A stretch of DNA of 64,000 nucleotides from a virus (taxonomy: Duplodnaviria > Caudoviricetes): IMG/VR virus record IMGVR_UViG_3300032116_000009. One strand, 5' to 3'. Shown here one piece after another: positions 3,421 through 64,000 of the stretch. The position numbers and the translations under genes are program-made. Numbering within the stretch: position 1 is the stretch's first letter; every line of letters begins with the position of its first letter. The notes beneath the pieces were generated by a model that saw nothing but the letters and a program-made list of their open reading frames with translations, searched no databases and was not told the origin of the DNA.

Positions 3421-5756
3421 TAGTTACAGTTCCAACGACGAAGGGCTTTGTTGATTCTTGAATCTGGATCTCGTGCAGTTTCTGCACTAGTTAGTCTCTT
3501 TTTCATACCTTCCATTCTGCGGCAAAAGGACTTACGGCGTTCAGCCCTTTTGCCCGCAGGCTTTTTTTCAGTTACTGCAGTCTGAAGTTTTGAACCTGGA
3601 TTTTCACGACGATAAGCATCTACAGCTTTCTGACTGAGACCATCGGTTTTATCTTTACGATTAACTGACTGCCAATCTTCCTTAACTCCAATCATCACAA
3701 TCGGATTTCTAACTCCAGCGGATCTCATCTTAGTTTTTGTTAGATTTACTTTAGTTGGTAAATCTCTCATATCCTTTTTTGGAGTTTCATTCTCTTTTTC
3801 GTCACATCCACAACCTTCACTCATGTTTGGATTGATTTGAATTTTATTTTTCTTTTTAGAAACATCAATTACTTTTTTTTTATCCGTTGCAGAGGAAAAA
3901 TCTTCTACTTCAAATAAAAAATCTTTTCTCCAATCATGGAGTTCTTCTTTTGTGACTTCTTTTTTATTTTGTTTGTTTAGTTCTCTTTTTGTCTTTGCAA
4001 TTTTAAATGCAGCTGCGCCCAATTGAACTCCACCTTTAACCATCTTACCAATATTACTTGCAACTTTAGTTGCAGCTGCACCTTCGGTATCTTTAGTAGA
4101 TATTTTTTGATATTCTGGTCTATCTACAGATTTTTTGGATGATTCAATTTTTTGTTCTAGTTCTCTTTTTCTATTTTTTTCTGCTTCCTTTTTCTTTTTT
4201 TCTAGAGCCTCAGCTTTTTTCTGAGCTCTCATTTTATCTTCCCTTTTAGTTCTTTCTTTTCTAGCTTCAGCTTTAGAAGCGGCCTTTTCTCTTTCAGTTT
4301 GTTGAAGAATTTTTGCAGCTTTTACTCTCGTGGCACCCCTAACTCTCTCAGCTCTTTCTACCCCAGTAACTTTTCGTTTACCTTTTTCTGGTTCTTCCTC
4401 AGTTTCTTTAGGCTTTTTTGATTTTTTATTGTCATCGTCTCCACGAATATCCGCAAGAAGATCGTCAAGTTTACCTTCACTTAATGGAGAAAATTCTAGG
4501 ATCATTCTATCAACTAAAGATAACTCTTCTTTAGTCTCCTCCTTTTTTTCAGGGAGTCCTGCATGTTTTGTCTTTGCAAAATCTCTTGCAGATTTCTTAG
4601 TCATTCCCTCTGCAGCCTTTGCAACCTCTGGAGAAGCAGGAGTTTCACCTTTCTTAGCAGCATAAACCATACCCATGAATCTCTGTTGAGCTCTACTTAG
4701 AGACTTCTCTGTAAGATATCCCTCACCCATTGCCTTCTGTTTACGAAGTTTCTTAGGATTCTTTGTCTTGTCTGCAGAGTAGTTATTATCATCCTCATTA
4801 TCAGGATCTACAGCACTACGATGTCTTGTGCGTCTTTCCTCATCATCCATGTTTGCACGACTTCTCTTTGCTTCATCTGGAGAATACTTTCTACCACTGT
4901 TGTACCATTCCTTACCTACATGACCTCTCTTCTCAGCATCAGCAGAAGCTTCTCTACGCTTATTCTTCTGACGATTTGCTTTGAAATCTTTCATGGTCAT
5001 ACCTTCTTCGATTTCAGTCTCTTCTTTTTTCACTCCTCTTCTCTCTTCATGTTCAGCTCTACGAGCCCTTTGTTGACCTCCACCTAATGCAAGGGCACCA
5101 CTTGGATTGTCATATCTTGCAAGTCTTGCTGCAGATCTCTTATGTTCTGGAAGTTTCTTATCTGCCTTACCTTCATCAACAAGGTCGCCTTCGGGTTCAT
5201 AAGATTGACGAAGTTGTTTCATTGCATCGTTAAGTGCATTGTTACGTTTTTGCATTCCATATGCAGCACCAGCAATACCTGTTCCAGGATTTTTAATCTG
5301 TTTTCCTTTATTTGCAGCATCTACTCCAGATTTCGCAGCATCTTTAGCTCTCTTAATTGCAGCACCAGCAGCAAGAGCTCCACCAAGAGCAAGTCCGCCA
5401 GCAATTAGTGGTGCAATCTCATCAATCTGTTCTACTTCTTCTTTCGCTTGAATAATCTTACTTCTTACCTTTCTGCGATTTAAAAGATATTTGTCAGTCT
5501 TATCATGATCTCCATCATTATCAATATCCTTATCTTCTTGACCAACAGCATCCAGTTGTTTCGCTTCTTCTACTTTCTTCTTCTTGTCTGCAGCAATGGC
5601 AGCTCCAACAGTAGCTCTCCTCTTCTTAAGATAACTATCAGAACTATCGGAATCACCATCATTATCCACATCGTCATCTTCATGACCAACTGGATCCAGT
5701 TTTTTAGCTGTTTTAGCTTCTGCAACAATACGTGAAAATTTTTCCCAACTAGACAT
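3420..5756 (-). CDS. Modular, highly charged late protein (putative head-internal polyprotein)
   Basis: 778-aa ORF with repeated DxDNDGD modules, a TKNPKKLRKQKAMGE module and a C-terminal SFCRRM...RWNCN module; late promoter upstream. Confidence 0.8.
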   Translation of the reverse strand: MSSWEKFSRIVAEAKTAKKLDPVGHEDDDVDNDGDSDSSDSYLKKRRATVGAAIAADKKKKVEEAKQLDAVGQEDKDIDNDGDHDKTDKYLLNRRKVRSKIIQAKEEVEQIDEIAPLIAGGLALGGALAAGAAIKRAKDAAKSGVDAANKGKQIKNPGTGIAGAAYGMQKRNNALNDAMKQLRQSYEPEGDLVDEGKADKKLPEHKRSAARLARYDNPSGALALGGGQQRARRAEHEERRGVKKEETEIEEGMTMKDFKANRQKNKRREASADAEKRGHVGKEWYNSGRKYSPDEAKRSRANMDDEERRTRHRSAVDPDNEDDNNYSADKTKNPKKLRKQKAMGEGYLTEKSLSRAQQRFMGMVYAAKKGETPASPEVAKAAEGMTKKSARDFAKTKHAGLPEKKEETKEELSLVDRMILEFSPLSEGKLDDLLADIRGDDDNKKSKKPKETEEEPEKGKRKVTGVERAERVRGATRVKAAKILQQTEREKAASKAEARKERTKREDKMRAQKKAEALEKKKKEAEKNRKRELEQKIESSKKSVDRPEYQKISTKDTEGAAATKVASNIGKMVKGGVQLGAAAFKIAKTKRELNKQNKKEVTKEELHDWRKDFLFEVEDFSSATDKKKVIDVSKKKNKIQINPNMSEGCGCDEKENETPKKDMRDLPTKVNLTKTKMRSAGVRNPIVMIGVKEDWQSVNRKDKTDGLSQKAVDAYRRENPGSKLQTAVTEKKPAGKRAERRKSFCRRMEGMKKRLTSAETARDPDSRINKALRRWNCN

Positions 5757-39026: not shown

Positions 39027-39219
39027 ATTCTGCATCTTCCTCTGCAACTTCATCATCACTTTCTTCCACATTTTCTTCATTTCCGAAAACTGATGCAGCA
39101 ACCGCAGGTCTAATAATATCAATATTTTCTGCTGATTTTTGCATTAAAATCTCTTTAATTCTGTCGCTGATATCTGATGGGGATTGGTCAGCAACAATCA
39201 TGTCAATTAAATCATCCAT
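39025..39219 (-). CDS. Small acidic prohead core protein (gp67-like by position)
   Basis: 64 aa with an acidic C-terminus, directly after the portal gene. Confidence 0.65.
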   Translation of the reverse strand: MDDLIDMIVADQSPSDISDRIKEILMQKSAENIDIIRPAVAASVFGNEENVEESDDEVAEEDAE

Positions 39220-39246
39220 TTGTTTTAATTCAATGTTTATTTAAGG

Positions 39247-44196: not shown

Positions 44197-44427
44197 TTAC
44201 CAGTCAGGATATTCCCATTTATCAAAAACTCTATTAGTCATTCTACTGGAGACTATTCTTTGAATAGTGCAATTTTTACACTCATATGAATATGCTGATG
44301 CTATGCCACCTCTACCTTTTCTCGTAAGATAAAAACCATCAATAAGATCTTTTACTTTTCCACACTTTCTACATTTTCTCTCAGTAAGAAATAAATGTTC
44401 TAATTCAAATTGATCATCAAAATCCAT
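44197..44427 (-). CDS. Small CxxC...CxxC zinc-finger protein
   Basis: RKCRKC...YECKNC; located between gp17 and gp18. Confidence 0.75.
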   Translation of the reverse strand: MDFDDQFELEHLFLTERKCRKCGKVKDLIDGFYLTRKGRGGIASAYSYECKNCTIQRIVSSRMTNRVFDKWEYPDW

Positions 44428-46076
44428 TATCTATAATCCCACATATATTGCATGTCTCCATATTCATCAACATGCCAACGATCGCCATCTTCATCAACAA
44501 AGCTTTCTCCACTATCTAACCCATCAGAAATGAATCCGAAAGGGGCCATATCTTGTTCAATTTGATTTTTTTGTTCTTCATAAATCCTTTTACGAACATC
44601 ATTGTCCGTCATTTCTTTGAAGTATGGTTGCATGATTAACCATGCAAAAATAACTAGACACATTGCAAGATCATCATTACAACCATCTTCAGCCTCAAAA
44701 GAATTAGCTTTCTGAATGAAAGTTGTGAGTTCACTGATCACTTCATAGTCTTTAATGACTAATTTATCTTCTTCTATTAAAGTCTTAAGATTCATGCATC
44801 CAATCTTTTTGACATTTTTGGACATCTTCACGCCCATTTGAGATTTCTTACCAGAAAACCCTTGACCCACTAATTGACCAGCACGACCCCTCATCGTACA
44901 CATAAGGACGTTATCATATTCCAAATCCATATGAAGAATCTGTCCAACTTGTTCACCAACGTCATTAACTTCAACTAAAACATATGCTTTATTGTAAGCG
45001 ACTGCAAGATCTTTGATAATACTCGGAAATAACATTGGTTTAATCTGGTTATTTCTGTATTTTGCTACAAGTCTATATGGAAAACTTGTTGTATCACAAA
45101 TTGTAAATGCTGAATAATCTTTCTCTACGCCCCTAGCAACATCAACCGTTAAAACATAATTATGATCCTTTTGAGGTTCTTCATAAATGTCAAGGCCTGC
45201 ATTTCTTTTTATGGGATCATCGTAAACTAAAGATCTGAGTTTTGCTGCAGATATGAGAGTATCGACAGATCCTAAAAATTCGCACTCAAACTCAACTTTA
45301 AATTGTTGTTCTGACGTGTTTGCAATAGTTTGTGCTTTCCACTTATCGTCTCTTCCTGGAACTTCGGACCAATGAACATCTGTGGGAACGTATTCATTTT
45401 TACCGCGTTCGGCATCATGCCACATACGGTAAAAATGATTCATACCTTTTGGGGTAGAAACAATTAGGACTTTTGTGCTTTGTCCAGACGATATAGTAGG
45501 ATAAACAGAGGCAAAGAATTCATCAGCAATGTGATTCGGGATGAAAGCGAATTCGTCCAAAAAGATGATATTATACGATCCGCCTCGGACAGCAGATGCA
45601 GAAGTAGATGCGGCGATAATTTTTGAGCCATTCTCCAGTTCTAGAGATCGTTTGTTCCATGATACGATACCTTGTTGCATCCATTTTGGCAGTTTTTCAT
45701 ATGCAAATTGTAATCTACTAAGTAGATCTTGTGCTGTGGATGCCTTGTTGGCTAGAATAGCTATGTTAACATTATCATTAAACACTGCATAATGTAACAA
45801 ATATGAAACACAAGTTGTAGATTTACCTGTCTGACGAGGCATTCTACAAATGTTAAATCTATTTTCGTGAAAGTTTGTAATTAACTTCTCTTGGAATGGA
45901 TACATCCTAAAAGGTATTTCACCATAGTCTAGTGAAACAATCTTGATATAATTTTTAGCAAAATACACAGGATCGTTCTTGCACTTTACAAACTCAAGAA
46001 CTTGTTCCTGTGTAAATTCTACGGCTACATTAGCCTTTTTAAGGTTGGGATTACCAAGATATACCTGATCACTCAT
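44427..46076 (-). CDS. gp17: Terminase large subunit (T4 gp17)
   Basis: PRQTGKST, LDEFAF, STPKG, DVARG and DDLAMC motifs. Confidence 0.98.
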   Translation of the reverse strand: MSDQVYLGNPNLKKANVAVEFTQEQVLEFVKCKNDPVYFAKNYIKIVSLDYGEIPFRMYPFQEKLITNFHENRFNICRMPRQTGKSTTCVSYLLHYAVFNDNVNIAILANKASTAQDLLSRLQFAYEKLPKWMQQGIVSWNKRSLELENGSKIIAASTSASAVRGGSYNIIFLDEFAFIPNHIADEFFASVYPTISSGQSTKVLIVSTPKGMNHFYRMWHDAERGKNEYVPTDVHWSEVPGRDDKWKAQTIANTSEQQFKVEFECEFLGSVDTLISAAKLRSLVYDDPIKRNAGLDIYEEPQKDHNYVLTVDVARGVEKDYSAFTICDTTSFPYRLVAKYRNNQIKPMLFPSIIKDLAVAYNKAYVLVEVNDVGEQVGQILHMDLEYDNVLMCTMRGRAGQLVGQGFSGKKSQMGVKMSKNVKKIGCMNLKTLIEEDKLVIKDYEVISELTTFIQKANSFEAEDGCNDDLAMCLVIFAWLIMQPYFKEMTDNDVRKRIYEEQKNQIEQDMAPFGFISDGLDSGESFVDEDGDRWHVDEYGDMQYMWDYR

Positions 46077-46085
46077 AAGACAAAA

Positions 46086-46262
46086 TTACAATTTCGCTAA
46101 ACTTGCTACGACTTCTTGTTGTTTGAGATATAGTTTAAAATAAGCTTTGGCAAATTCTATTGCTTCATCTCTATCTAACTTATCTATAACCCTCGATTGT
46201 TGTTCATAAATTAACATCTTATTAATATCTTCAAGTACTATTTCAGAGGGATTTACGTTCAT
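46086..46262 (-). CDS. NblA-like phycobilisome degradation adaptor candidate (58 aa), below the ORF-track cutoff
   Basis: Hand translation MNVNPSEIVLEDINKMLIYEQQSRVIDKLDRDEAIEFAKAYFKLYLKQQEVVASLAKL. The ORF fills the gap exactly; its size and two-helix pattern fit NblA as recalled. Confidence 0.55.
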   Translation of the reverse strand: MNVNPSEIVLEDINKMLIYEQQSRVIDKLDRDEAIEFAKAYFKLYLKQQEVVASLAKL

Positions 46263-46263
46263 T

Positions 46264-48189
46264 TCAATTACCTTGAATAACTACAATTGGTTTTGTTGGG
46301 TCGGTAGGACTTGGATACCACTGCATTATAACTGCGCCTGGATAAAACTTTTCAATTTCCTTTTTCACTTCATCTTTTGATGGCCTCTTCATACTTGAGA
46401 AGAAAAGTTGAAGATTTGTCATTGGTCTACCTCTCCATGAAAAAAGTATAGTATAAACATTACCACTAGATTGTATCCGTTGATAATCTTCGTTTGTCAA
46501 TTGTCCTGGTTGAATAACAGAGTCTGCAAGAGGAAGAGAGGGGCCACTTAGTTTTCTAAGTGCGGCTTCTTTCTCTCCTTTGTTAGTAGTTCCAGTTGCA
46601 AGATTGCGAATTTTTGCTTGTCTTTGTGCATGTCTGTGTCCAGAACCGATTTCAAAACTCACATTTTCATTTGCTGGGTGAACTTTTGCAATACTATATG
46701 GTTTTTCTGGAGCTAATGAAGAAGGTAGTGAGAACATTTTCCAATAACCTTCGCCGTATTTGCATTCGGAAGATGTTTCATTTTTTTGGCACTTTGGGCA
46801 ATATCTTACTCCATTCATTTCTTCTGGAATAAATTCTTCTTTTTTGGTTTTATTGCCCCAGTTTGCAGCACCAACTTTACGACACTTAACTAACGCACCA
46901 GATGCATATGCAGAAGGCCAAACCTTATAACGAGATTTTACCTTTGAATAACATGCGTCCTTTTCTTCACCTAATTTTGCAGCCCTTCTTTTTGCTTTAC
47001 TTCCTTTTCCTCTATCTCTGTTTTTACCTAAAGTGTCTGCCCAATAATCTTTATTCTTTCTATTCATTTCACCACCAACAGATCTTTCTTCTGGAGGGGC
47101 ACTTCTTCCACCACGACTTCTCATAGAATCAAATCTTTTATCCAATTCCTCAGTGGCAACCATCTTAGCCTTACCCTTTCTATCTGGGTTTGGATCTTCC
47201 TGGTTCTTACGACGGAATGCTCTCTCCTCTTCTTTATCGGAGAGTTCTGCTTTCATTTTGCTGGAACCACACTTTGGTTTTGTGGTTTGTCCTGGTTGTT
47301 TTGCACAGGGTTTCCCTGCGTATTTACCACCCAGTTGAACCCAACCAGGGGTGCCATCAGAAGCGCGACTCTTAGTAAACCAGTCACGCAAAGAACTATC
47401 ACCACTCTTGTTGGCTTCATCAATGGAATTCTCCTTCACACAATTAGGAACTATCTTCTTTCCTTTCTTTTTCATTCCGAGTTGTTTGTAACCATCCCAA
47501 CATTTTTCGTTCACAGGCTCAGTAAAACTTTTGAATTTATAATCAGACCCTTTAACAATATCAATAATAGTTGCAAAAAGATTTCCGTCTGCATCTAGAA
47601 TCTCTAGATGTTCATTCATTCTTTTTTTACGACCTTGGCAGTGAGCTTTCTGGGAAAATCCTTTTGGATTATCACAATCAATTGACTTTTTATATTTTTC
47701 CGACCAATCTTCCTTTACCTTCTCCATTTTTCTAAGTTTGGAGTAGTAATTTGGAATTTCGTCTAAATGTTGCAATGCAATATCCATTGCTTGATCATTA
47801 TCTGTAGTATGTTCCTTTTCAACTTTCATCCCCATCTCAAGTTGTTTTTCGATAACTGATGGAGATACTTTATGCTTTTTTGCGATTTCTTCTATGGATT
47901 TGTGTCCTTTGAACCCTTCTTTAACATCAGATTTTCTTTCTGTATCATCTTCTCCATGAGTAAGATGATCAGCTACTGTATCAAGATACTCTGCAGCTTT
48001 AGTGATTTTGGATTGTACCCACGCTTCTAGATCTCCTTCACCTTTGAGTTTGGTCATCAATCTTGTAATTGCTGCCTGTGCAGTCTTAAGTTCTCCACGA
48101 GCCATTGAGAACTCAAAGTCTTCTCCAAGAGGTGCAATTGTTTGGAGGTCCGAGAGAATAGACCACTCTTTAAAGGTAAGTTTTTCCAT
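46264..48189 (-). CDS. Modular late protein of short Cys-pair/basic modules (putative head-internal polyprotein; includes a DUF5661-like EHT..IALQHLDE module)
   Basis: Likely start MEKLTFKEW at 48189; about 11 discrete modules, each beginning after xxE. Confidence 0.8.
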   Translation of the reverse strand: MEKLTFKEWSILSDLQTIAPLGEDFEFSMARGELKTAQAAITRLMTKLKGEGDLEAWVQSKITKAAEYLDTVADHLTHGEDDTERKSDVKEGFKGHKSIEEIAKKHKVSPSVIEKQLEMGMKVEKEHTTDNDQAMDIALQHLDEIPNYYSKLRKMEKVKEDWSEKYKKSIDCDNPKGFSQKAHCQGRKKRMNEHLEILDADGNLFATIIDIVKGSDYKFKSFTEPVNEKCWDGYKQLGMKKKGKKIVPNCVKENSIDEANKSGDSSLRDWFTKSRASDGTPGWVQLGGKYAGKPCAKQPGQTTKPKCGSSKMKAELSDKEEERAFRRKNQEDPNPDRKGKAKMVATEELDKRFDSMRSRGGRSAPPEERSVGGEMNRKNKDYWADTLGKNRDRGKGSKAKRRAAKLGEEKDACYSKVKSRYKVWPSAYASGALVKCRKVGAANWGNKTKKEEFIPEEMNGVRYCPKCQKNETSSECKYGEGYWKMFSLPSSLAPEKPYSIAKVHPANENVSFEIGSGHRHAQRQAKIRNLATGTTNKGEKEAALRKLSGPSLPLADSVIQPGQLTNEDYQRIQSSGNVYTILFSWRGRPMTNLQLFFSSMKRPSKDEVKKEIEKFYPGAVIMQWYPSPTDPTKPIVVIQGN

Positions 48190-48190
48190 A

Positions 48191-48613
48191 TTACTTTTGA
48201 TTAGATAAGTTTTTCTTTCCAAGTGAAATCACTTGATCTTTTGTCATACCAGTTGCTTTCATCTTTGCTGCACCACCACCAGCAGCAAAATCATCCATTG
48301 GTTTTTTGACTGGTGTAGACTGCTGTTGAGAAGGTCTGTTTATTTTGTTAGAAAAATCTTGTTGTGCCTTTGCTGCTTTTGCCTTTTGTCCCGCATAAAG
48401 AACATCACTCACACTACTTCCTTTTTTTAGTGCTGCTTGTCCACCACCTGCTTTAAGGGCTGCATATCCACCTCTGTCAGAAAATTGCTTTGATCCAATC
48501 TGATTTGAAGCATAGGCATTTCTTTGAGCACTTGTAGTGAAACGACTATTTGGATTCATTGCCATTTCACTAATAGAATAAGCCTCGGCACAAAAATTTC
48601 GGAATGTCTTCAT
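48191..48613 (-). CDS. Gly/Ala/Lys-rich protein with MKTFRNFCAE-A leader
   Basis: 140-aa ORF downstream of a CTAAATA late promoter. Confidence 0.75.
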   Translation of the reverse strand: MKTFRNFCAEAYSISEMAMNPNSRFTTSAQRNAYASNQIGSKQFSDRGGYAALKAGGGQAALKKGSSVSDVLYAGQKAKAAKAQQDFSNKINRPSQQQSTPVKKPMDDFAAGGGAAKMKATGMTKDQVISLGKKNLSNQK

Positions 48614-52450: not shown

Positions 52451-55400
52451 TTATTTTTTAAGTTCATTAATTTGATTTTTCAGGTCTTCTATTTGTGATT
52501 GTTGTTCTTTAATTGCCTCGATTAGAACTGCTACCATGTTTCCATAAGCAACAGACTTAGTTCCATCTTCAGTTTCAAATACTAATTCAGGGATTACTTC
52601 TTCAACTTCTTGAGCGACAACACCAATTTGATGTTCGCCATTCATATCAATACGATCATATTCAACTCCACGCAACTTCAATACTTTTTCTAGAGCCTTT
52701 TCAATTGTATTGATGTTTGTCTTTAATTTAATATCAGATTGTGCAGTTACTGTGCCTGGGAAAGTAGTATTACCGGAACCATCAAGGAGAGTTGCAGTTC
52801 TGGTTAGAGTTGAAAATACGCCAGTATATTGTCTAACGTAAATTGGTTCGGTTCCATCATCTGCAGTTGCAATTTCAACATAACCAGCGTTAGAAGCAGT
52901 GCCTCCGATTAAAATGCGGAACTGGTCGTTGTCCGCCATGTTACCACGAACAAGTTCAGTGGTATTTGTTCCAGTTACAGTATTGGTTAAATTACCAGTT
53001 ACATTACCAGTAACGTTTCCAGTCACATTACCACTTACATTACCAGTCAATGCACCAACAAATCCTCCAGTTGAAGTTGTTACTCCAGTAACTCTAATGC
53101 CAGTGGAATTAACAATTACATTAGTACCAATAGTAGCAGAAGTAGCAGTTAATGCGTTAACCGTAACACTTGGGGTTCCAGTTAATCCAGTAGCATTACC
53201 ATTGATACTACCGTTAAATGTTCCAGAGAATGTTGCGGTAATTATTCCTGCGTTAAAGTTACCAAAAGCATCACGAGCTACAATGGTGCTTGCTGTATTT
53301 GCTGCAGTTGCGTTTGATGTAACAGTAAATGTAGCTGCTCCAGAGTTATTATAAGTGGTGGAACCAGAAATACCAGTTCCAGATGTATTCATAGTTAATG
53401 TATTCGCAAGAGGTCTCTGCCATGTACCAGAGTCATTCCACAATTCTAGATTACTTGCAACGTTCCAAGAACCAGTTGCATTATTAGATGCATACCATCT
53501 TGCGCCACTTCCAGGTTGGAGTAAGAACAATTGGTTATTATTGTTACCAGCTGGAGCACTATGTACCCAAGATCCATCAGTATAGTAAATATTAGAACTT
53601 AAGAAGACTATTCCATCCCAAGTAAGAACACCAAATGATGACTGGGAAGGTTTCTTGATGATCAATTGAGAGTCATTATCACCAGTTGTTCCGTTAACAA
53701 CTAGTCCACCACCACCAATCGCTGTTCCAGTACCACCAACAATTGTTGTACCCGTAATAGTATTTCCATTAATATTACCAGAAGCATCACGTCTTACAAT
53801 AGTATTTCCTGTATTTGTGGTTGCAGAACTAAATCCATTGAGTAAAGCAGCATTTAAGTTAGTTACCTCTGTAGTTGAAGAAACTGTAAATGGAGCAGTT
53901 CCTGTTGCAACTGTTGAAATTAATCTTGTAGCAGAAATTGTTGAAGCGGCAGTTAAAGCTCCTGCAGCAGTTAGAGTTAATATTTCTGAGAATGATGTTT
54001 GGCTATTTACTTTATACCATCTATGAGTTCCTCCAGAATAATAAGAAACCGTATCACTATGAATTCCAAATCCACCAGCCCAAGTACTGCCATCATTATA
54101 AAGGGTAATTTTATTTGGACCACGAGCAGCATCATTAAAGGAATTATCAAATACTAATCTCTTATAAGTTCCAAATGCAGTGGTATTAGAAGAAGCACCA
54201 CCATCATTGATGGTAACATTGTTACTGAATGTTCCAGCGCCGCCACTAAATGTTGTTGCACTAATTGTACCAGCGCTAAAGTTACCAGAAGCATCACGAG
54301 AAACTATCGCACCTGCAGTATTTGCAGAAGTTGCATTAGATGTAACTGTGAATGTAACAGCACCAGAACCATTATAAGTTGTAGAACCGGAAAGACCAGT
54401 TCCAGATGTATTCAAGGTTAATGTATTTAAATTTGATCCAAGTGAAACACCAGAAATGGTTGAGTTTGCTAGATTTGCATTTGTAATTCCAGCAGAACCA
54501 CTTAAGTTTGCATTAGTCAGACCAGAAATAGTATTAGATCCTGCAGCGATTGTTTTGTTAGTTAATGTATCAGTTGAAGATACAGTTACAACATTAACGC
54601 CTTCAACGGCAATTCTACCTGCAGAAGCTCTAGTAATTGTAGTGTCAGTTAGATTTCCAAGTTCAATCGAAGTAATAATTCCCGATGTAGCTGTTATTGT
54701 ATTAACAGTGATACTTGGTGTTCCACTTAAGCCTGTTGCATTTCCAGTGACGTTGCCAGTTAGTGGTCCTACGAATGAAGTTGCAGTTACTACGCCAGTT
54801 ACGTTAATACCTGTAGAATTGAGAACTACATTTGTACCCACTACACCTGAAGTTGCAGTTAAAGCATTGATAGTGATACTTGGTGTTCCACTTAAGCCTG
54901 TTGCATTTCCAGTAACATTTCCTGTCAATGGACCTACAAAAGAAGTTGCAGTTATTATACCAGTTACATTGATACCAGTGGAATTAAGAACTACGTTTGT
55001 GCCTACTACAGCTGAAGTAGCAGTTAGAGCATTGATGGTGATACTCGGAGTTCCTGAGAGACCTCCTGCTGTACCACTCACATTACCTGTTACATTGCCA
55101 GTAACATTACCAGTTAATGGACCTACAAATGAAGTTGCAGTTACAATTCCTGCAGCAAATCCACCAAGAACGTTACGAAGTACAATTCTACTTGCAGTAT
55201 TTGCACTATCAGTAGAGTAACCTTCCAATAGTGATGCATTAAGATTAGTTACCTGTGTGGTAGAAGTGACAGTAAATGGAGCTGTACCTGTTGATACATT
55301 GGAAATAAATCTTGTAGCGGTAACAATACCTGGGAACGTAGTATTACCGGAACCATCAAGAAGAGTTGCAGTTCTCTGTAAGGATGTAAAAGTACCACTG

Positions 55401-58400
55401 TACTGTCTTACATAAATTGGTTCTGTTCCATCGTCTGCAGTTGCAATTTCAACATAACCAGCGTTAGAAGTTGTTCCACCAATAAGGATGCGGAAGAAAT
55501 CATTATCAGCCATGTTACCACGAACTAGTTCTGTGGTAGCAGTTCCTGTAACAGTATTACTGATATTACCTGTTAGGTTGCCTGTAACATTACCAGTTAA
55601 ATTGCCAGTTACATTACCGGTTAGAGGTCCAACGAAAGAAGTAGCCGTAACAATACCTGCACTAAATCCACCCCAAGCATCTCTAGAAACAATAGTACTT
55701 ACCGTATTAGTTGTTGAAGAGTTGAGTCCATCAAGTAAATCTGCATCTAGTCCAGATCCAGAACCATCATTACCTTGATGCCATAACTTGTTCCAAGCTG
55801 TTGTTCCACTACCATTTGTTGAACGATAGTAAATATCATTACTATTATAAAAACTTCCAGCAAACTGCATTGCATAGTAATTCGCTGTATTACTATGTGT
55901 AGAACTGAGAAGGTGATACCAAGTATTTGTTGTTTGTGGCCAACCTTCTGCAGTTGTAGCAGTGTCAGTCTGCCAGAAACCACTCTTAGTTCTTGTAGTA
56001 ATATCGTCCTTGGTTTTAGCTTCAGCTTCAAATGAACTTGAGAATAATTGTGTTCCTGACCAAGTATTTGATCCGTCTAAAAGTGGAATTGTATTTCCAG
56101 ATGTTCCAGTGTTCTTCCCATCAAGTAAATCTGCATTCAAATTAGTTACTAATGTAGTAGAAGAAACTGTGAATGGTGCAGTTCCTGTAGCCTGAGTTGA
56201 TGTGAATCTTGTTGCTTGTATTGCTCCAGTAAATGTACCTGTTCCAGCAACACTAACTGTTACAACATCTGTTCCTCCAGAATTTCTAAGAATCCAATTC
56301 GTTGTATACTGATTATAAAGAGAACCGTTGAAGTATTGAATCTTCGCAGCTTTATTGCCCGTCCAATTTGAACTATTTGCAAAAGAAATATCTTTATCAA
56401 TTAGAACAGTGAATCCAGCACCCACTACTCCTGCAAATTCTGGACTTCCAGTTAAAGTATAAGAACTTCCATTTCCAAGTAAAGTAAATCCAAGTGAAGG
56501 AGCTGCAGTAAGATTAGTTCCACCTCTTGTTACTGGTAGAGTTCCAGTACTATTGAGAATATCAAGATAATATGCACTGTTCTGACCACCTAGAGTGGCA
56601 GCATCCACATCTCCAGTCACAGAATTCTTAATACTTATAGCACCATCTGTACCAACTGTAAATGTAGAAGACTTGAATCTAGATACACCAAGAGTTGAAT
56701 ATTCATCTGAAGAAGTTTGAGCTCTATTCAGAGTTATGTTGATATTTCCATAGTAAGTATTAACTCCAACTCCACCTGGGGCTAGTTCGGAACTAGTAGC
56801 AGTTACACCAATTGGTTGAGTTGTTCCAATTCCAACTGAAGTAATTACTTTCTGATATGAAGAATCACCTCTCAAGAATGTCTGGTCATTAGCAGTTCCA
56901 CTTCCAAGTCTAGATGGTGATAATGTACCAGTAATAATGTTGGACGCATCTAAACTTCCTACAGAAAGTAGTGACCAATTATTGGTATCTGAAGATGAAG
57001 TGTTAACAGTTCTAGAATACTCAACATTTTGCTCTGTAAGAGTCATAATTCCTACAGCACTATTAATGGTGCCTCCTGCCAAACTTACAGTGTTTAGAAG
57101 TAGACCATTAATAGAAGCTAAAGCCGCAGCTCTAGTTTCATGGAATGTAAATGAGTTTGTAGTTACTGATCCAGCAAAGTAGAAACTACCAGTAGTAATT
57201 CCGGTTGGAGTATTACCAGTGACTTTTACTGCTTCACCCTGACTCAATCCATGGTTTTTAAATGTTATCTGATCAGTTAAAGTATTGACCCCAACACGAC
57301 TCAATGAATGAGTTAAAGTACCACTACTTGTCAGATCTTTAATAGTTACAAGTGCATAGGTTGAATAAAGTTGAACAGATGTTAAACCTACAGTCTTAAT
57401 ATAATATGTTGTAGTGTCCAGTAGTGGACCTATTGGAGTTCCACCACCACTACGGTAAATTACTGGATCTCCATCAACAAAACTATGACCAGATCCAACA
57501 ACAATTCTATCATTTGCAAAGTCAACACTACCGCCAACGCTAATATCCGTAGGGGTGAAGGTTACAGTATATCCTATTCCAATATTAGTTGAAATAGCAA
57601 CTGCATTTCTATCAGAAACGAAGTCTGAAAGTGCAGAACTTCCTGGGAATTTCTGTCCATTAGAAAGGGCAAGATAGAGCCTTGTTTCTACAGTAGCTAT
57701 GTTAACAGTAAAGTTAGATCCACCAGTTCTTCCACCAATTGGAGTGGGATTATTAAGAGTTAATACGTCACCTACAGCAAATTTGTATCCACCAGTATTA
57801 ATTGCAACATTAGTAACTGTTCCACTAACACCAACTGTAATCGTAGCAGTAATTCCGGTTCCAATACCAGTAGAAGTATCAAGACGAACACCCGTATAGA
57901 TTCCTGGATTATTGTATCCAGAACCACCAACTAAAGAATTCAATGTTAAAGGTACGCCTCTGACAAGACCAGTAGTTCCATAACCTACATTTGGGAAAGA
58001 TAATGTAGTTGTACCTAAACCAACTCCAATTCTTGGTGGAGCAGTTACAACACCAATTGCACCACCACCAGAAGTTACACTAACTACTTCATCCCCATTC
58101 AGGAAATTGTAGACAGTTGAATTGTTTAGAACCAAATATTGACCTACAGTATCAGTAATTAGAACGAATGAATCTGTTGGCTCAACTACAGTATCTCCGG
58201 ATACTAAGCTAGTAGCAGGAATATAGTTAACTAACTGAGTTCTTCCACCATCTACTGAAGACTTATAGTAATTGACAGTTTTTGGTGGAATTAGATCAGC
58301 ATTAATTTGACCGATTGAATTGAGTTGAACAACAGCGTTAGGAATAGCGTTTGTAGAAACTGATTTATCAATAAAATCTCCAAGTCTATTATTCAAGAAT

Positions 58401-61400
58401 GATCTAGTTGAAAGTTGTGTAGGAACTCTAGAGTGCTTAGGTCCACCAATTTCATTATCACCAAGATCCGTATCCGTAGAGAACTCTTCAATTACGTTAC
58501 CACCAGACAGCGATAATCTAATAGAATCAAGAGTACCAATAGTAACAGTATTATTGAAGATAATGTTACCAGTTCTGTTATAGGCAACAATCGAATCACC
58601 AATCTTAAAGTCTCCAAGTTCATTGGTACCGGATGAATAAACTCTACCACCAAGTTCAGAAACTTGTTCAGATCTTGGATCGGTTTGACCTCCATTTTGT
58701 GGGAGAGCATTATAATCTATACCAGAACCAGAGAATTCCCAAGTGTGTGATGAAGAGTTTACAATAGATGGTCTGTGGAAGTGTAGTTTATACACTTCAG
58801 GTAAAGTTCCAATATTCTGAACGAGTGTTCCAGCTATTGTAGAATCTGTCTTAAATTCAACAGTCCAATAAGTAGTTAATCCGACAACAGCACTTACCCC
58901 GATAGAAATCGGAGATGGACTGTGATCATTAATGTTTAATACTGTTGTTCCATTAGTAACTGAGAAATTCCTTCTAACTCCAGAAGAAAGTTCTAATGCG
59001 ACAATAAGTTCTCTAGTAGTGTTGTTATACGTTACCGCAAATCCAGTTGCAGTTCCTCCAACTACAGTTTGACTGATTAATCTACCAGAAACAAACGATG
59101 CTGTAGAACCCACTCCAGCAAGGGTTAGTTTTTGATATGAATTATGTGAATCAATAATTTCTTTTACGAAGAAGTCTTGAGTTGACTTTGTAATAGTATG
59201 AATACCAGTACTTAGTGAAGTCAAGTCAACGATGGTATTCAATGACTCATCTTCAGCTAACTTGAAATTATCAGCATCAATATAAACAACATAGTATTGG
59301 TTGTCGTTAACCAGTCCACCAACAATTCTATTTGGAATTACTTGTTCGTCTCCATTGTAAATAACTGGATCAGCATTATTAAATCCGTGAGTTGTAATTG
59401 TAATAGTATTCTCAGTTAGACCAACTCCAGTAGCTCCATTAAATTCTTTTACTGTTACTGCTGGTTTGAACTGTGAAGTTCTATCAACTCCATTTCCATC
59501 GAAGAATCTGAGAATATAGTTTTCAACATCAGATCTACCATATCCAACTGCCTTGAGTGTTTGTAATCCACCAGAAGTGCCAGTCGCGGCAACTCTACCA
59601 CGATCAAAAATGAACGAATTTCTACTATATCCAGTAGATCTTAAAGCATATAAACCGAAGTTAGTTGCAGAGTTTGTAATGGATAGGTATCCACCAGACT
59701 GCGCTAGGGATCCATATCTACAGAAAATTTGGAAACAAGAAACAACCTGTGAATATCCATCGTTAATAACACGCCAACCGATACCACCGAAGGAAACCAT
59801 CGTAAATGCTGCGGCAACCATGGACTTACCTTGTTCTGGTTGAATAGCATCTGGACCAACTTCTACCTCTTCAGAAATAAGAGGTACGTTTGGTGTTAGT
59901 ACTTTATTTCCATCAACCAACATTCCATTACCACCTAAGAATGATAGAATGGAACAGTTCTGAATATATGGAGATCTAGTAATAGTTGGTTTGTCTAATT
60001 TAGTAGCATAACCGGCTCTGGAAGTTAGATTATCCGAAGGATCATCAAAAGCTACAGCGTAATCAAATGTATTTTGGGGAACACCTGCGAGATCAATCGC
60101 ATCCTTCATAGCAAAACCAGTGAGATAGATTCCATTTCTTACACGGAATAAATCTTTACCAGCATTTGCAGGTCTAATTATAGTATTTCTTAGGTTATCG
60201 CCAACGATTGCAACATCATCATAAAGAATGATTGGGTTATCTTCTACATAGTTTCCAGCCTCAACGATAATACAAACAGGTTGTGACTGTGTTCCTGGTG
60301 CAACCAATGCTGGGGCTGCAGTTGTGCCAAGACCAACAATAGTTGTAATGATGCCAACATAGTTAACTAATGCAGATCTGACATCCGCACAATCGGTTAA
60401 ACCTAAGTTTGTAGTTGCAATTCCAACAATACTTCCACTAATGACTGCAGTTGTAAGAATTCCAACAAGGTTATCAATATTAGATCTTATGTTCGCACAA
60501 ACATTTACATCTTTGTTTGTGGATCCAACACTAACATCATTTTGGATACTTAAATCCTGGTAATTTAACCAATTTGTTACAGCTCTCTTTGCATAAGTAC
60601 CTAAACTCTGGAATGCGTAAGCTGAGATTACTTCTTCACCCAACAATCCATCTGTTCTTGCTGCACCAGCACCATCGAAGTACTTTTTAGTTGCATAAAG
60701 AATATGTTGGTTAGTTCCGTAAGAGATATCTTGAGCAACAGCATCGACAATGTATCCAAGATCTCTTGCACATTTACGTCCACCAACAACATTAGTGGTT
60801 CCAATTCCTACAAAATCACTTACATTATAGGTAGAGTTGACCAAGAAATATCCATAATTTGTTGTTGCACCAATTCCAGCAGTACTACCAGAACCAACAG
60901 CTGTTGTAACAATTCCAGTCAACGTATCAATAGTTGATCTTACATTAGAACAAGAATTAGGATCAGTGTTAAATCCAGTTACTGGATCTGCAGTAATAGT
61001 AAGATCTCTAGAATTAAGCTGATTGGTAACAGCTTTCTTCATGTAATCTCTAGCACTCTCAAACACATAATTAGATTCTGCGGTTTCTCCGGCTAAACCA
61101 TCCGCAAGAAGATTACCTACATTACTGAAATAGAATCCAGTAAATGCACGAGCATAATTATTACCACCTGTAAACACATCAGTAGAAACGGCATCAATAA
61201 AGAATCCGGTATCTCTAGCACACTTCCAGATACCCTCTGTCATTCCATATCCAATGACGTTGAGATCAAAATCACCGTAATTTACTGCAGGGAGTCCACT
61301 AGTATTTCCAACTCCTATTGCTGCAGTTACGATTCCAACGAGAGAAACAATGGTATTTTGTACATCTGTACATGCAGTTGTACTGGAAACACCTACGTTA

Positions 61401-64000
61401 CCTCCACCTCCGTTATATGTTTCTGGTCCACTAGAAACATTCAAATTCTTATTTGTGAGAAGATTTGTAATAGCTCTTCTCATCTGAGTTCCAGCTTGTT
61501 GGAATCCGTAAATTGTTTGTTGTTCTTCTCCAGCTAAACTGGTAGTTCCTACACCAACAAAATAGAATCCTGTGAAAGCTCTTGCATAATTATTACCACC
61601 AGTAAAGACATCAGTAGAGACTGCATCAACAAAGTATCCCAAGTCTCTCTGACACTTAGCTGAAGAAACTCCAGAAGACCAAAGTGTTGGGTATTGAACG
61701 GATATTGCAGTTAAAGCGGTAGCAACAATCTCACTCTTATTAATTTGGATTAATCTATAAGCATCATAATATCTGGAATCTTCTGTAGTTGATGTGACTC
61801 CAGGGCCTGGAACATAGAATCCTGTTGGGAATCCAATAGCAATAGATGCGATTGATTTATCTACGATTTCTTGTTTGTTAATCTGGATTAACTTATAAGA
61901 ATCATAATATCTGGATCTTTCATTAGTTTCTTGTTCACCTGGGAAGTAGAATCCAGTTGTAGCAGCAAGAGCTACAGATGCAAGAGACTTATCAATAATT
62001 TCTTGACGGTTGCCAATGATCAGATTTCTAGCATCTTTAGATCTATGGAAGTAGTTTGTATTTGTATTCTCTGGATCATCAATAATTGTAAAATCAAAAG
62101 TTTGAGATACTGCAGTCTGATAAAGGGTTGGTGGCGACTGGTTATTAATAATATATTGACCAAGGAATTTAATATACTCATATGCAAAAATAGCCTCTTC
62201 TTCTTCACCTGCAACATATGAAGTAGCACCAGACCAATACGCTAATCCAGCTTCTCTAGACTTGGAATTTCCACCAAATCTAATATCATAAGCTAATGCA
62301 TCTACAAGATATCCAATATCTCTTTTACAAATTACTGGATCATAATCCATCAAACGAGTTGAAATATCCTCATAGTTGAATTCAAGATAAGCTACTACTT
62401 CTTCTTTAATGAATTCTTTGTTGGATTCAATTAAATTACCAGCATCAAGGTATCTTTGACCAGGAATGATAAAGCTATCAAAAGATGCTAATTGTGATGC
62501 CCTCTTAATGGTTTTAACTGGAAGAGTTTTACCATCATTTGCGTCATCACCATTAACTGAAGAAACATAATATCTGTTTTCATACAATCCAGTACCAGTT
62601 GCAAATCCCAGAGTTCCATCTGCATTTAAACCAAGTAATTGTCCATTCTGACCTAATGTTGGTGGTAAAACCAAATCATAATTGGTTGCAATTCCAAGTT
62701 GTGATGTCTTAAATGTAACGTTATTTCTAAGAGAAGTAAATGTATTAATTCCAGAAACTTGAACATTCGTAAATACACCGACGTTACCGGTAATACTGTT
62801 AACACCGCTTACATTATTATTGTTTCCATTTATTGTTACTGAAGACGATCCAATTGTTAAAATTCCAGTAATTCTTGCATTACCAGTTACAACTAAACTT
62901 GTATTACCAGTACCAATTCTAACATTACCAAGTGTAGAAATACCACTTACATTGATGTTTGTTGCACTTAAGTGAGTAACGAATCCAAGAGTTGCATTTA
63001 AATTATCTACGTTACCATTAACAATATTAACATTTTGTCCTATTAGTGAACTTGCGTTTGCACTGGTTATAATACCAGAATTAATATATGCAGTATTAAT
63101 ATTAAATGCAGTCGCTACCGCTGTTGTAATTCCAAGATAAGTCGCAATTCCACTATTTACATTTAAAGTATTGACAGTAGCAGTTGTTATATTTGCATTT
63201 GTTATAATACCTGCATTGATTTTTGCTTCATTAGTTACACTACTAGTAATTCCAAGATAAGTTGCAATACCGGCGTTAAGATAAAGCAGGTTAGCAGAAC
63301 CAGAAGTAATTCCTACATTTGTAATAATACCTGTATTAACATAAGAGGTTCCTGAATAAGAAACTCTTACATCCAAATAAGTTGCAACTCCAGTGTTTAC
63401 ATTTAATCTATCAATAGTTGCGGTAGTTATTCCAGCAGAGGTAATTACACCAACATTGATGTTTGCTCTATCAGTTAAACTAGTTGTAACACCGAGATAA
63501 GTTGCAAACCCAATGTTTATATTTGCTGATCCAATATATGCAGTGTTTATATGAGCAGTTGTTACAATACCAGTATTAATATTAGCTTGATTTGTATATG
63601 AAGTGGTAACATTCGCATTTGTTATTGTTGCCGCAGTAATTACACCAACATTAATATTAGCACGATTTGTATAAGATGTAGAAATACTAGAATTTGTTAC
63701 TACTTCTGAATCTATTATAGCCGAAGTAATAATTCCAGTATTAATATTAGCCACATTACTATATGATGTGGTGATGTTGGCATTAGTTATTATTGCCGCA
63801 GTAATCACACCAACATTAATATTGGCTTGATTTGTATAAGATGTTGAAATTCCTGCATTTTGAATTGTTGCATATTCGATAGATGCATTAGTAATGATGC
63901 CACTATTAATATTAGCAGTATTAGTATAAGAATTCGTGGCATTTATATTAGTAACCGTAGCCGCAGTTATGAATCCTACGTTAATATTAGCTACATTAGT
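52451..64000 (-). CDS. Giant tail fibre/receptor-binding protein with C-terminal intramolecular chaperone (peptidase S74-like) domain; 5' end lies outside the window
   Basis: The frame is open from the stop at 52451 to the window edge (64 extra codons checked by hand; >=3849 aa). C-terminus SDIKLKTNI..ALEKVLKLRGVEY..GVVAQEVE plus coiled coil; T/G/N-rich repeats. Confidence 0.9.
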   Translation of the reverse strand, partial: TNVANINVGFITAATVTNINATNSYTNTANINSGIITNASIEYATIQNAGISTSYTNQANINVGVITAAIITNANITTSYSNVANINTGIITSAIIDSEVVTNSSISTSYTNRANINVGVITAATITNANVTTSYTNQANINTGIVTTAHINTAYIGSANINIGFATYLGVTTSLTDRANINVGVITSAGITTATIDRLNVNTGVATYLDVRVSYSGTSYVNTGIITNVGITSGSANLLYLNAGIATYLGITSSVTNEAKINAGIITNANITTATVNTLNVNSGIATYLGITTAVATAFNINTAYINSGIITSANASSLIGQNVNIVNGNVDNLNATLGFVTHLSATNINVSGISTLGNVRIGTGNTSLVVTGNARITGILTIGSSSVTINGNNNNVSGVNSITGNVGVFTNVQVSGINTFTSLRNNVTFKTSQLGIATNYDLVLPPTLGQNGQLLGLNADGTLGFATGTGLYENRYYVSSVNGDDANDGKTLPVKTIKRASQLASFDSFIIPGQRYLDAGNLIESNKEFIKEEVVAYLEFNYEDISTRLMDYDPVICKRDIGYLVDALAYDIRFGGNSKSREAGLAYWSGATSYVAGEEEEAIFAYEYIKFLGQYIINNQSPPTLYQTAVSQTFDFTIIDDPENTNTNYFHRSKDARNLIIGNRQEIIDKSLASVALAATTGFYFPGEQETNERSRYYDSYKLIQINKQEIVDKSIASIAIGFPTGFYVPGPGVTSTTEDSRYYDAYRLIQINKSEIVATALTAISVQYPTLWSSGVSSAKCQRDLGYFVDAVSTDVFTGGNNYARAFTGFYFVGVGTTSLAGEEQQTIYGFQQAGTQMRRAITNLLTNKNLNVSSGPETYNGGGGNVGVSSTTACTDVQNTIVSLVGIVTAAIGVGNTSGLPAVNYGDFDLNVIGYGMTEGIWKCARDTGFFIDAVSTDVFTGGNNYARAFTGFYFSNVGNLLADGLAGETAESNYVFESARDYMKKAVTNQLNSRDLTITADPVTGFNTDPNSCSNVRSTIDTLTGIVTTAVGSGSTAGIGATTNYGYFLVNSTYNVSDFVGIGTTNVVGGRKCARDLGYIVDAVAQDISYGTNQHILYATKKYFDGAGAARTDGLLGEEVISAYAFQSLGTYAKRAVTNWLNYQDLSIQNDVSVGSTNKDVNVCANIRSNIDNLVGILTTAVISGSIVGIATTNLGLTDCADVRSALVNYVGIITTIVGLGTTAAPALVAPGTQSQPVCIIVEAGNYVEDNPIILYDDVAIVGDNLRNTIIRPANAGKDLFRVRNGIYLTGFAMKDAIDLAGVPQNTFDYAVAFDDPSDNLTSRAGYATKLDKPTITRSPYIQNCSILSFLGGNGMLVDGNKVLTPNVPLISEEVEVGPDAIQPEQGKSMVAAAFTMVSFGGIGWRVINDGYSQVVSCFQIFCRYGSLAQSGGYLSITNSATNFGLYALRSTGYSRNSFIFDRGRVAATGTSGGLQTLKAVGYGRSDVENYILRFFDGNGVDRTSQFKPAVTVKEFNGATGVGLTENTITITTHGFNNADPVIYNGDEQVIPNRIVGGLVNDNQYYVVYIDADNFKLAEDESLNTIVDLTSLSTGIHTITKSTQDFFVKEIIDSHNSYQKLTLAGVGSTASFVSGRLISQTVVGGTATGFAVTYNNTTRELIVALELSSGVRRNFSVTNGTTVLNINDHSPSPISIGVSAVVGLTTYWTVEFKTDSTIAGTLVQNIGTLPEVYKLHFHRPSIVNSSSHTWEFSGSGIDYNALPQNGGQTDPRSEQVSELGGRVYSSGTNELGDFKIGDSIVAYNRTGNIIFNNTVTIGTLDSIRLSLSGGNVIEEFSTDTDLGDNEIGGPKHSRVPTQLSTRSFLNNRLGDFIDKSVSTNAIPNAVVQLNSIGQINADLIPPKTVNYYKSSVDGGRTQLVNYIPATSLVSGDTVVEPTDSFVLITDTVGQYLVLNNSTVYNFLNGDEVVSVTSGGGAIGVVTAPPRIGVGLGTTTLSFPNVGYGTTGLVRGVPLTLNSLVGGSGYNNPGIYTGVRLDTSTGIGTGITATITVGVSGTVTNVAINTGGYKFAVGDVLTLNNPTPIGGRTGGSNFTVNIATVETRLYLALSNGQKFPGSSALSDFVSDRNAVAISTNIGIGYTVTFTPTDISVGGSVDFANDRIVVGSGHSFVDGDPVIYRSGGGTPIGPLLDTTTYYIKTVGLTSVQLYSTYALVTIKDLTSSGTLTHSLSRVGVNTLTDQITFKNHGLSQGEAVKVTGNTPTGITTGSFYFAGSVTTNSFTFHETRAAALASINGLLLNTVSLAGGTINSAVGIMTLTEQNVEYSRTVNTSSSDTNNWSLLSVGSLDASNIITGTLSPSRLGSGTANDQTFLRGDSSYQKVITSVGIGTTQPIGVTATSSELAPGGVGVNTYYGNINITLNRAQTSSDEYSTLGVSRFKSSTFTVGTDGAISIKNSVTGDVDAATLGGQNSAYYLDILNSTGTLPVTRGGTNLTAAPSLGFTLLGNGSSYTLTGSPEFAGVVGAGFTVLIDKDISFANSSNWTGNKAAKIQYFNGSLYNQYTTNWILRNSGGTDVVTVSVAGTGTFTGAIQATRFTSTQATGTAPFTVSSTTLVTNLNADLLDGKNTGTSGNTIPLLDGSNTWSGTQLFSSSFEAEAKTKDDITTRTKSGFWQTDTATTAEGWPQTTNTWYHLLSSTHSNTANYYAMQFAGSFYNSNDIYYRSTNGSGTTAWNKLWHQGNDGSGSGLDADLLDGLNSSTTNTVSTIVSRDAWGGFSAGIVTATSFVGPLTGNVTGNLTGNVTGNLTGNISNTVTGTATTELVRGNMADNDFFRILIGGTTSNAGYVEIATADDGTEPIYVRQYSGTFTSLQRTATLLDGSGNTTFPGIVTATRFISNVSTGTAPFTVTSTTQVTNLNASLLEGYSTDSANTASRIVLRNVLGGFAAGIVTATSFVGPLTGNVTGNVTGNVSGTAGGLSGTPSITINALTATSAVVGTNVVLNSTGINVTGIITATSFVGPLTGNVTGNATGLSGTPSITINALTATSGVVGTNVVLNSTGINVTGVVTATSFVGPLTGNVTGNATGLSGTPSITVNTITATSGIITSIELGNLTDTTITRASAGRIAVEGVNVVTVSSTDTLTNKTIAAGSNTISGLTNANLSGSAGITNANLANSTISGVSLGSNLNTLTLNTSGTGLSGSTTYNGSGAVTFTVTSNATSANTAGAIVSRDASGNFSAGTISATTFSGGAGTFSNNVTINDGGASSNTTAFGTYKRLVFDNSFNDAARGPNKITLYNDGSTWAGGFGIHSDTVSYYSGGTHRWYKVNSQTSFSEILTLTAAGALTAASTISATRLISTVATGTAPFTVSSTTEVTNLNAALLNGFSSATTNTGNTIVRRDASGNINGNTITGTTIVGGTGTAIGGGGLVVNGTTGDNDSQLIIKKPSQSSFGVLTWDGIVFLSSNIYYTDGSWVHSAPAGNNNNQLFLLQPGSGARWYASNNATGSWNVASNLELWNDSGTWQRPLANTLTMNTSGTGISGSTTYNNSGAATFTVTSNATAANTASTIVARDAFGNFNAGIITATFSGTFNGSINGNATGLTGTPSVTVNALTATSATIGTNVIVNSTGIRVTGVTTSTGGFVGALTGNVSGNVTGNVTGNVTGNLTNTVTGTNTTELVRGNMADNDQFRILIGGTASNAGYVEIATADDGTEPIYVRQYTGVFSTLTRTATLLDGSGNTTFPGTVTAQSDIKLKTNINTIEKALEKVLKLRGVEYDRIDMNGEHQIGVVAQEVEEVIPELVFETEDGTKSVAYGNMVAVLIEAIKEQQSQIEDLKNQINELKK
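52759..55536. repeat. Dispersed ~200-nt direct repeat in the tail fibre gene (copies near 52759-52962 and 55330-55536)
   Basis: Both copies encode TELVRGNMADND.FRILIGGT.SNAGYVEIATADDGTEPIYVRQY...ATLLDGSGNTTFPG; offset 2574 nt. Confidence 0.85.
54690..55150. repeat. Tandem 165-nt (55-aa) repeats, about three copies
   Basis: A 41-nt identical stretch (gtgatacttggtgttccacttaagcctgttgcatttccagt) occurs at 54708 and 54873; the third copy is diverged. Confidence 0.85.
63000..64000. repeat. Degenerate ~25-aa beta-repeat region (NINxGxITxAxI...)
   Basis: Recurring ANINxGII/VTxA motifs in the translation. Confidence 0.7.

Follow-up and report, generated by a model that had tools for sequence, protein, structure and literature searches.

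A 58-residue NblA-like protein encoded beside the terminase gene of a T4-like cyanophage belongs to a published clade of putative myovirus NblAs

Described viral NblA proteins and the relatives of this locus

NblA is a small adaptor that tags the light-harvesting antenna of cyanobacteria for proteolysis, and viral NblA proteins are known from several groups of cyanophages. Those of clades other than the myovirus family considered here degrade phycobilisomes and speed infection (PMC12695635; bioRxiv 10.1101/494369), and deletion of nblA from the T7-like phage S-TIP37 lengthens infection and spares the phycobilisome (PMC12695635). Viral NblA shortens the infection cycle of T7-like cyanophages and depresses oceanic light harvesting (PMC12695635). 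Of two viral NblAs assayed in an S. elongatus knockout, one complemented and the other did not (bioRxiv 10.1101/494369). Nadel et al. predicted an unannotated nblA in eleven marine cyanophages, and reported that marine viral NblAs, including functional ones, score poorly against the Pfam model (bioRxiv 10.1101/494369). According to the S-SCSM1 paper, those eleven predictions included one cyanomyovirus, S-TIM5; the same paper called S-SCSM1 ORF237 an NblA by HHpred (95.5%) and listed seven myovirus homologues (S-B43, S-B05, S-SM2, Bellamy, S-SKS1, SynMITS9220M01 and the freshwater S-SRM01) that matched T. vulcanus NblA at 96.4-97.3% (PMC9602691, Tables S2, S4).

We analysed a 64,000-nucleotide stretch of viral DNA (IMG/VR record IMGVR_UViG_3300032116_000009; hereafter the window), in which a gene of 58 codons lies directly upstream of TerL. 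This gene is a member of the known, published clade of putative myovirus NblA-like genes, homologues of which have been flagged in print since 2019-2022. The novelty implied by the preliminary description of this DNA was overstated, since homologues already stand as putative NblAs (PMC9602691; bioRxiv 10.1101/494369; GenBank PQ898602). The family includes S-TIM5 AEZ65625, S-SCSM1 ORF237, S-SRM01 QPX48163, gene 118 of S-SCSM2R, and genes of S-B05, S-B43, Bellamy, S-SM2, S-SKS1 and SynMITS9220M01. A tblastn search with the 58-residue protein matched exactly the genes named in PMC9602691; the homologues of cultured phages are 37-52% identical to it, measure 54-59 aa and keep the conserved core. 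That of S-SRM01 (QPX48163.1), whose gene was confirmed by coordinates, is 50% identical. As in the window, the NblA-annotated gene of S-SCSM2R sits between a modular protein and TerL, whereas most isolates carry it near neck genes or among early small genes. Our additions are modest: a freshwater origin, a measure of how large the clade is in metagenomes, two conserved positions for it in late modules, and a Pfam-positive bridge sequence.

Comparison with better-known NblAs reveals both likeness and distance. Cyanobacterial NblA (PF04485; structures 1OJH, 2Q8V and 3CS5) resembles the 58-residue protein in size, in its helix-loop-helix form, in the predicted dimer and in a remote but significant profile similarity; the phage protein nevertheless falls below the Pfam and NCBIfam thresholds, and its LSLEQQF signature is altered. 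Its gene is phage-encoded and stands among late virion genes, whereas cyanobacterial NblA is induced by nutrient stress. The S-TIP37-type NblA is likewise a viral member of the NblA family, carried by phages of marine and freshwater picocyanobacteria, for which a benefit from antenna proteolysis is plausible, but it comes from another phage family and another NblA clade. In T7-like phages nblA follows an exonuclease gene in a DNA-metabolism cluster, whereas in the window it belongs to a cluster for packaging and structure; profile-profile searches give T7-like NblAs good scores against Pfam NblA (PMC12695635), whereas the present family needs a bridge sequence. The Microcystis and Planktothrix phages Ma-LMM01, MaMV-DC and PaV-LD share with the window a phage-borne NblA and a freshwater origin, but theirs are recent host-derived copies, easily detected by Pfam, with weak similarity to this family (hhalign P 4e-4 to 3e-3). 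Functional proof of a viral NblA exists only for clades other than the myovirus family, and the function discussed here, argued by analogy, is putative.

The gene and its surroundings

The gene and its immediate neighbours are as follows.

44427..46076, minus strand: TerL of the T4 gp17 type, downstream neighbour (Terminase_6N, E 4.5e-23; Terminase_6C, E 2.5e-13; phrog_2)
46086..46262, minus strand: NblA-like gene of 58 aa, ATG at 46260-46262 and TAA at 46086-46088 (open reading frame and translation)
46264..48222, minus strand: 652-aa modular protein (DUF5661, phrog_727), upstream neighbour in the same orientation as the 58-aa ORF
46270..46274, minus strand: AAGGT, a Shine-Dalgarno-like motif about 8 nt before the ATG, within the 3′ end of the 652-aa gene (sequence reading)

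The preliminary description had reported an unlisted ORF filling the gap before TerL, and the arrangement bears this out: a single nucleotide separates the TGA of the 652-aa gene (46264-46266) from the ATG of the 58-aa ORF, and 9 nt lie between its TAA and the TerL ATG (46076). The amino acid string quoted there is present in the translation. The 1-nt spacing suggests that translation of the 58-aa ORF is coupled to that of the 652-aa gene. On the minus strand the cluster runs through a 350-aa ORF, TerS (phrog_445), a 140-aa ORF, the 652-aa gene, the 58-aa ORF and TerL, followed on the same strand by a 76-aa endonuclease-VII-like gene and, at the place of the tail sheath gene, an 802-aa ORF.

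A terminator scan of the minus strand gave no terminator-like site in the cluster, including the junction between the 652-aa gene and the 58-aa ORF. Sigma-70 promoter-like sites in the cluster did not exceed shuffled expectation, and no copy of the T4 late promoter TATAAATA occurs near the 58-aa gene; the 6-mer TAAATA motifs upstream of neighbouring genes are too weak to count. A single RNA-library contig of 169 nt, which may derive from DNA carry-over, spans TerL and the 3′ half of the 58-aa ORF (45997-46165), and no RNA-library contig covers the 5′ half (46166-46262).

Three other features of the region were recorded. Within the 652-aa gene, contigs of two metatranscriptome runs (about 90% identical to the window) omit exactly 183 bases (61 codons, in frame) at 46966-47150, a pattern suggesting that one module of this gene is present in some related strains and missing from others. 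The 76-aa gene (44197-44427, minus strand) encodes an endonuclease-VII-like zinc ribbon (phrog_4723, E 6.5e-36) whose relatives are annotated PacI or endonuclease VII, and its start overlaps the last base of the TerL stop codon. At 52451-63808 (minus strand) a single ORF of 3,785 codons, presumably a giant fibre or structural protein, runs past the window end if read open-ended.

Conservation of the gene

At 58 codons the ORF is short and below the usual annotation cut-offs, as would be expected of a chance reading frame in an intergenic gap. Its conservation speaks otherwise. The protein matches phrog_27081, a family of unknown function, at E 1.8e-11; a word-indexed search returned relatives in 68 protein clusters (identity 53-97%), and at least 474 relatives were confirmed in IMG/VR. 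A filter-free search with the family HMM among 1.84e9 proteins retrieved 169 representatives (50% identity clustering) at E<=1e-3. The identical 58-aa protein is encoded on 50 contigs, the longest of 226 kb. Pairwise comparison with 8 relatives of 73-92% nucleotide identity gave dN/dS of 0.014-0.19 at dS up to 1.7, the signature of a gene under purifying selection. Judged by these substitution patterns, by the hundreds of conserved relatives in two syntenic contexts and by a confident structure model (pLDDT 88), the ORF is a real gene; a chance origin, which the conservation pattern already refutes, retains a negligible probability.

Sequence homology to NblA

Direct scans did not connect the protein with NblA. 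A search with PF04485 (NblA; IPR007574), whose gathering cut-off of 25 bits is an operational threshold and not a biological definition, had been proposed as a check on the preliminary description; it returned no match to the 58-residue protein even at E<=10, and NCBIfam NF045916 gave no match either. When PF04485 was run against 25 relatives, only three matched, all below threshold (best E 0.033). No PF04485 match was obtained for the annotated homologues of S-SCSM2R, S-SCSM1 and S-TIM61, nor in a six-frame search of those three genomes. The family profile missed NblA among PDB sequences, its sole return being a chance match to a capsid domain (E 0.58).

A link was provided by P0275, a 61-aa protein found by the family HMM at E 4.2e-5 among 1.84e9 proteins. 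It scores 34.9 bits on PF04485 (cut-off 25) across model positions 1-48 of 50, and its best match among PDB sequences is the NblA 1OJH. The 58-residue protein is 40% identical to it over 45 residues without gaps, and the two have in common K-[LM]-D-R-D-x-x-I-E-F-A and K-L-Y-L-x-Q-Q. In sequence terms, P0275 is a Pfam-positive bridge that makes the homology explicit.

Profile-profile comparison was performed against ten Pfam-positive NblAs, namely P0275, P0297 and eight of the Ma-LMM01 clade. The family alignment matched this set in hhalign with a probability of 95.4% (E 1.8e-8, 44 ungapped columns), and the score of 43.8 compares with 10.2 for the reversed alignment and at most 15.6 for 30 column shuffles. 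With the bridge sequences left out, the match to the Ma-LMM01 clade alone is weak (P 4e-4 to 3e-3), but the register is unchanged and the score of 19.6 exceeds that of every shuffle. An HMM of the ten NblAs placed the 58-aa ORF first of 690 stop-to-stop ORFs in the window at E 7.8e-7, the next best reaching 0.07. Searches seeded with Ma-LMM01 NblA returned only relatives of at least 74% identity, and those seeded with P0275 only 2 proteins; with yields so narrow, no broad cyanobacterial NblA profile could be built.

The 58-residue protein is thus very probably an NblA homologue. The preliminary description named a lack of profile or structural similarity among the grounds for refuting this idea; direct scans alone would have given that impression, whereas the sensitive tests agree with NblA.

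As a separate observation, a 71-aa ORF at 39028-39240 (minus strand; phrog_14164, E 5.8e-27, unknown function) is the second-best match of both NblA HMMs in the window, at non-significant E-values of 0.07 and 0.39.

Predicted fold, dimer and conserved residues

The predicted structural elements and the principal motif map to the window as follows.

46182..46235, minus strand: predicted helix 1, residues 10-27 (AlphaFold2), corresponding to the N-terminal helix of NblA and superposed on 1OJH, 2Q8V and 3CS5
46092..46172, minus strand: predicted helix 2, residues 31-57 (AlphaFold2), its N-terminal half on the predicted dimer axis
46113..46136, minus strand: K-L-Y-L-K-Q-Q-E, residues 43-50, the most conserved motif of the family (alignments)

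AlphaFold2 modelled the 58-residue protein as a helix-loop-helix with pLDDT 88.1. Foldseek against the PDB gave nothing significant (best E 7), and an exhaustive VIA-align search was therefore needed. Among 48,161 PDB chains the NblAs of PCC 7120 (1OJH_A; Z 6.3, 50 of 52 residues), T. vulcanus (2Q8V_A; Z 5.9, rmsd 2.2) and S. elongatus (3CS5_A; Z 5.3, rmsd 0.9) ranked first, third and fifth, with 46-50 residues aligned in the three superpositions. Z values of 5-6 are modest, since short helical hairpins reach them by geometry alone; the weight of the search comes from the presence of all three solved NblA structures in the top five rather than from absolute Z. The nearest neighbours in the ESM Atlas are viral clusters of the family itself; after them, the first full-length Pfam-bearing neighbour by shape is a cyanobacterial 'putative NblA' cluster (TM 0.73/0.79, rmsd 1.4). 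Ranking by language-model features again gave a cyanobacterial NblA cluster as the first such neighbour (0.79), which we treat as a lead only. As modelled, the 58-residue protein has an NblA-like fold.

A symmetric homodimer was predicted with a score of 0.56 against 0.00 for the best control, passing a mark that 20 of 30 solved homodimers and 1 of 23 single chains reach. Contacts agreed between runs by at least 94%, and the partner pLDDT was at least 78. Helix 2 contacts itself across the predicted axis at residues 31, 34, 38 and 41, and helix 1 of each chain lies against helix 2 of its partner, so that the predicted interface includes both helices of both chains as a four-helix bundle. The NblA dimer has been described as a four-helix bundle (PMC7966870). 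Because solved NblA dimers exist, the outcome of the dimer prediction may partly reflect likeness to them. The original guess, drawn from size, a two-helix pattern and a remembered motif, gains support from the hhalign probability of 95.4%, the bridge P0275, the NblA structures as top matches and this predicted homodimer.

Among 141 distinct relatives L10, K39, L44, Q48 and E50 are invariant, and I8, Y19, I26, Y41, L46 and Q49 nearly so; most of these residues fall in the predicted dimer interface. The N-terminal L-S-L-E-Q-Q-F of canonical NblA is replaced in the phage family by L-E-x-I-N-K-M-[LF]. Residues L51 and K53 of Anabaena NblA, near its C-terminus, were reportedly found by Bienert et al. 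in 2006 to be needed for phycobilisome binding. In a gap-free superposition on 1OJH (model 9-58 on chain 5-54) these chain residues correspond to L55 and K57 of the 58-residue protein, a correspondence that is a lead only. At position 55, 140 of 141 relatives have L, F or I; at position 57, K is found in 71 of 130, mainly in the TerL-adjacent clade.

Hosts, habitats and placement among relatives

The flanking genes are of the T4-like cyanomyovirus type. Among cultured genomes, that of Synechococcus phage S-SCSM2R comes nearest, with 79% nucleotide identity across TerL, so the window does not represent a known isolate. Near-identical DNA occurs in sequencing runs of many studies, most of them labelled freshwater metagenome and several fungus metagenome, and the closest relatives of the protein (89-97% identity) come from freshwater metagenomes.

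A homologue is present in about 16 cultured phages; Synechococcus was the isolation host of every one, Prochlorococcus of none, and all 23 phage records with a tblastn match list Synechococcus hosts, never Prochlorococcus. Judged by isolates, the family occurs only in phages whose hosts bear phycobilisomes, which is consistent with a phycobilisome-related role and fits the kind of host that the preliminary description had expected. Gene-carrying phage contigs, among them those of the closest copies and of cluster member P0320, have been binned into MAGs labelled Acetobacteraceae, Pirellulaceae, Crocinitomicaceae, Methanobacteriota and Nanopelagicaceae; these placements in lake MAGs are likely mis-binned cyanophage DNA.

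Across 86 loci two arrangements predominate. TerL lies directly downstream, as in the window, in 21 of them, which hold the closer relatives (54-95% identity). In about 61 the gene is flanked on one side by that of a 66-aa virion structural protein (phrog_473) and on the other by a tail-fibre-assembly-like gene; here the phrog_473 gene follows a giant fibre-like protein, and neck genes lie a few genes further. The remaining 3 loci (S-TIM5 type and S-SCSM1) have it elsewhere, outside such modules. Most T4-like carriers therefore have the gene within late virion modules, at one or the other of two sites, a statement about placement and not about timing; the late placement noted at the outset is real and recurs in relatives.

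Proposed function and alternatives

We consider it fairly probable, by analogy with characterised NblAs, that the 58-residue protein is a divergent NblA of T4-like Synechococcus cyanomyoviruses and would act as an adaptor for phycobilisome-directed proteolysis. Each chain would form a helix-loop-helix, and two chains the predicted four-helix-bundle dimer. During infection this dimer may bind host phycobiliproteins and the ClpC chaperone, upon which the Clp protease could dismantle the phycobilisome, freeing amino acids and lowering light harvesting, with bleaching as the expected outcome. Set tightly among genes for late virion proteins and packaging, with no terminator, the gene is probably expressed late, when the demand for capsid protein would peak.

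It counts against such a role that a metabolic gene would not usually hold a constant place among virion genes, and that T4-like cyanophages often carry genes that sustain photosynthesis and do not dismantle it; so does the failure of one of the two assayed viral NblAs to complement. The placement, in 21 loci beside TerL and in about 61 near neck genes, would also suit a small helper of virion assembly or structure whose helical hairpin resembles NblA by convergence only; such hairpins are common and Z values of 5-6 modest. The sequence-level links are nevertheless significant and survive the controls, and the S-TIM5-type phages and S-SCSM1 carry the gene outside such modules, which leaves this explanation very unlikely.

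A different possibility accepts descent from NblA but not the function: the protein may have ceased to be an adaptor for phycobilisome degradation, serving instead as a ClpC adaptor retargeted to other host proteins or as a heterodimer with host NblA paralogues that modulates or blocks antenna degradation. The family is very divergent from canonical NblA, with its N-terminal L-S-L-E-Q-Q-F replaced and its most conserved motif, KLYLKQQE, specific to the phage family. Viral NblA also directs the degradation of non-phycobilisome proteins, and Prochlorococcus, which lacks phycobilisomes, has NblA, as do its phages (PMC12695635). NblAs are known to form heterodimers, and for a viral NblA that did not complement, dependence on a partner from the host has been proposed (bioRxiv 10.1101/494369). 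Against this stand the confidently predicted homodimer (0.56 versus 0.00) and the limitation of isolates to phages of phycobilisome-bearing Synechococcus, which a phycobilisome target fits better than a general one. On balance a changed target or partner appears unlikely.

Returning to an NblA-derived role, the protein may have become fixed in late modules, in two independent arrangements, for reasons of timing. It could then act as a late-expressed switch that stops the phage's early support for photosynthesis and breaks down the antenna, or else further ClpC substrates, to supply capsid synthesis, or as a heterodimer partner that seizes the host bleaching programme; we offer this as a speculation that is itself quite unlikely.

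T4-like cyanomyoviruses are the other dominant cyanophage group beside the T7-like phages, and this divergent clade of NblAs is common among them, with at least 474 relatives in IMG/VR and 169 representatives after clustering at 50% identity. Its range includes freshwater lakes, and it goes undetected in standard annotation with Pfam. An active clade would mean that myoviruses and fresh waters ought to be counted when antenna loss caused by viruses is estimated.

Loci of further relatives

The gene for P0275 lies at 5001-5186 of a 137-kb JGI contig, where its neighbours are numerous small ORFs along with genes for a sigma factor, an HNH endonuclease and a pilin-like protein. This contig looks like a large uncultured phage, with an NblA intermediate between the canonical and myovirus types. 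The contigs of P0269, P0276 and P0304 are short or podovirus-like (about 42 kb) and are not host genomes. P0304, for which cultured phages gave no match, is a 59-aa relative in the same 50% cluster as P0228 (family profile E 6.7e-8) and ends in a C-terminal K-G-W-L-P. Its gene, at 4001-4180 on podovirus-sized ENA contigs of about 42 kb, runs against the direction of the surrounding DNA polymerase A and primase-helicase genes.
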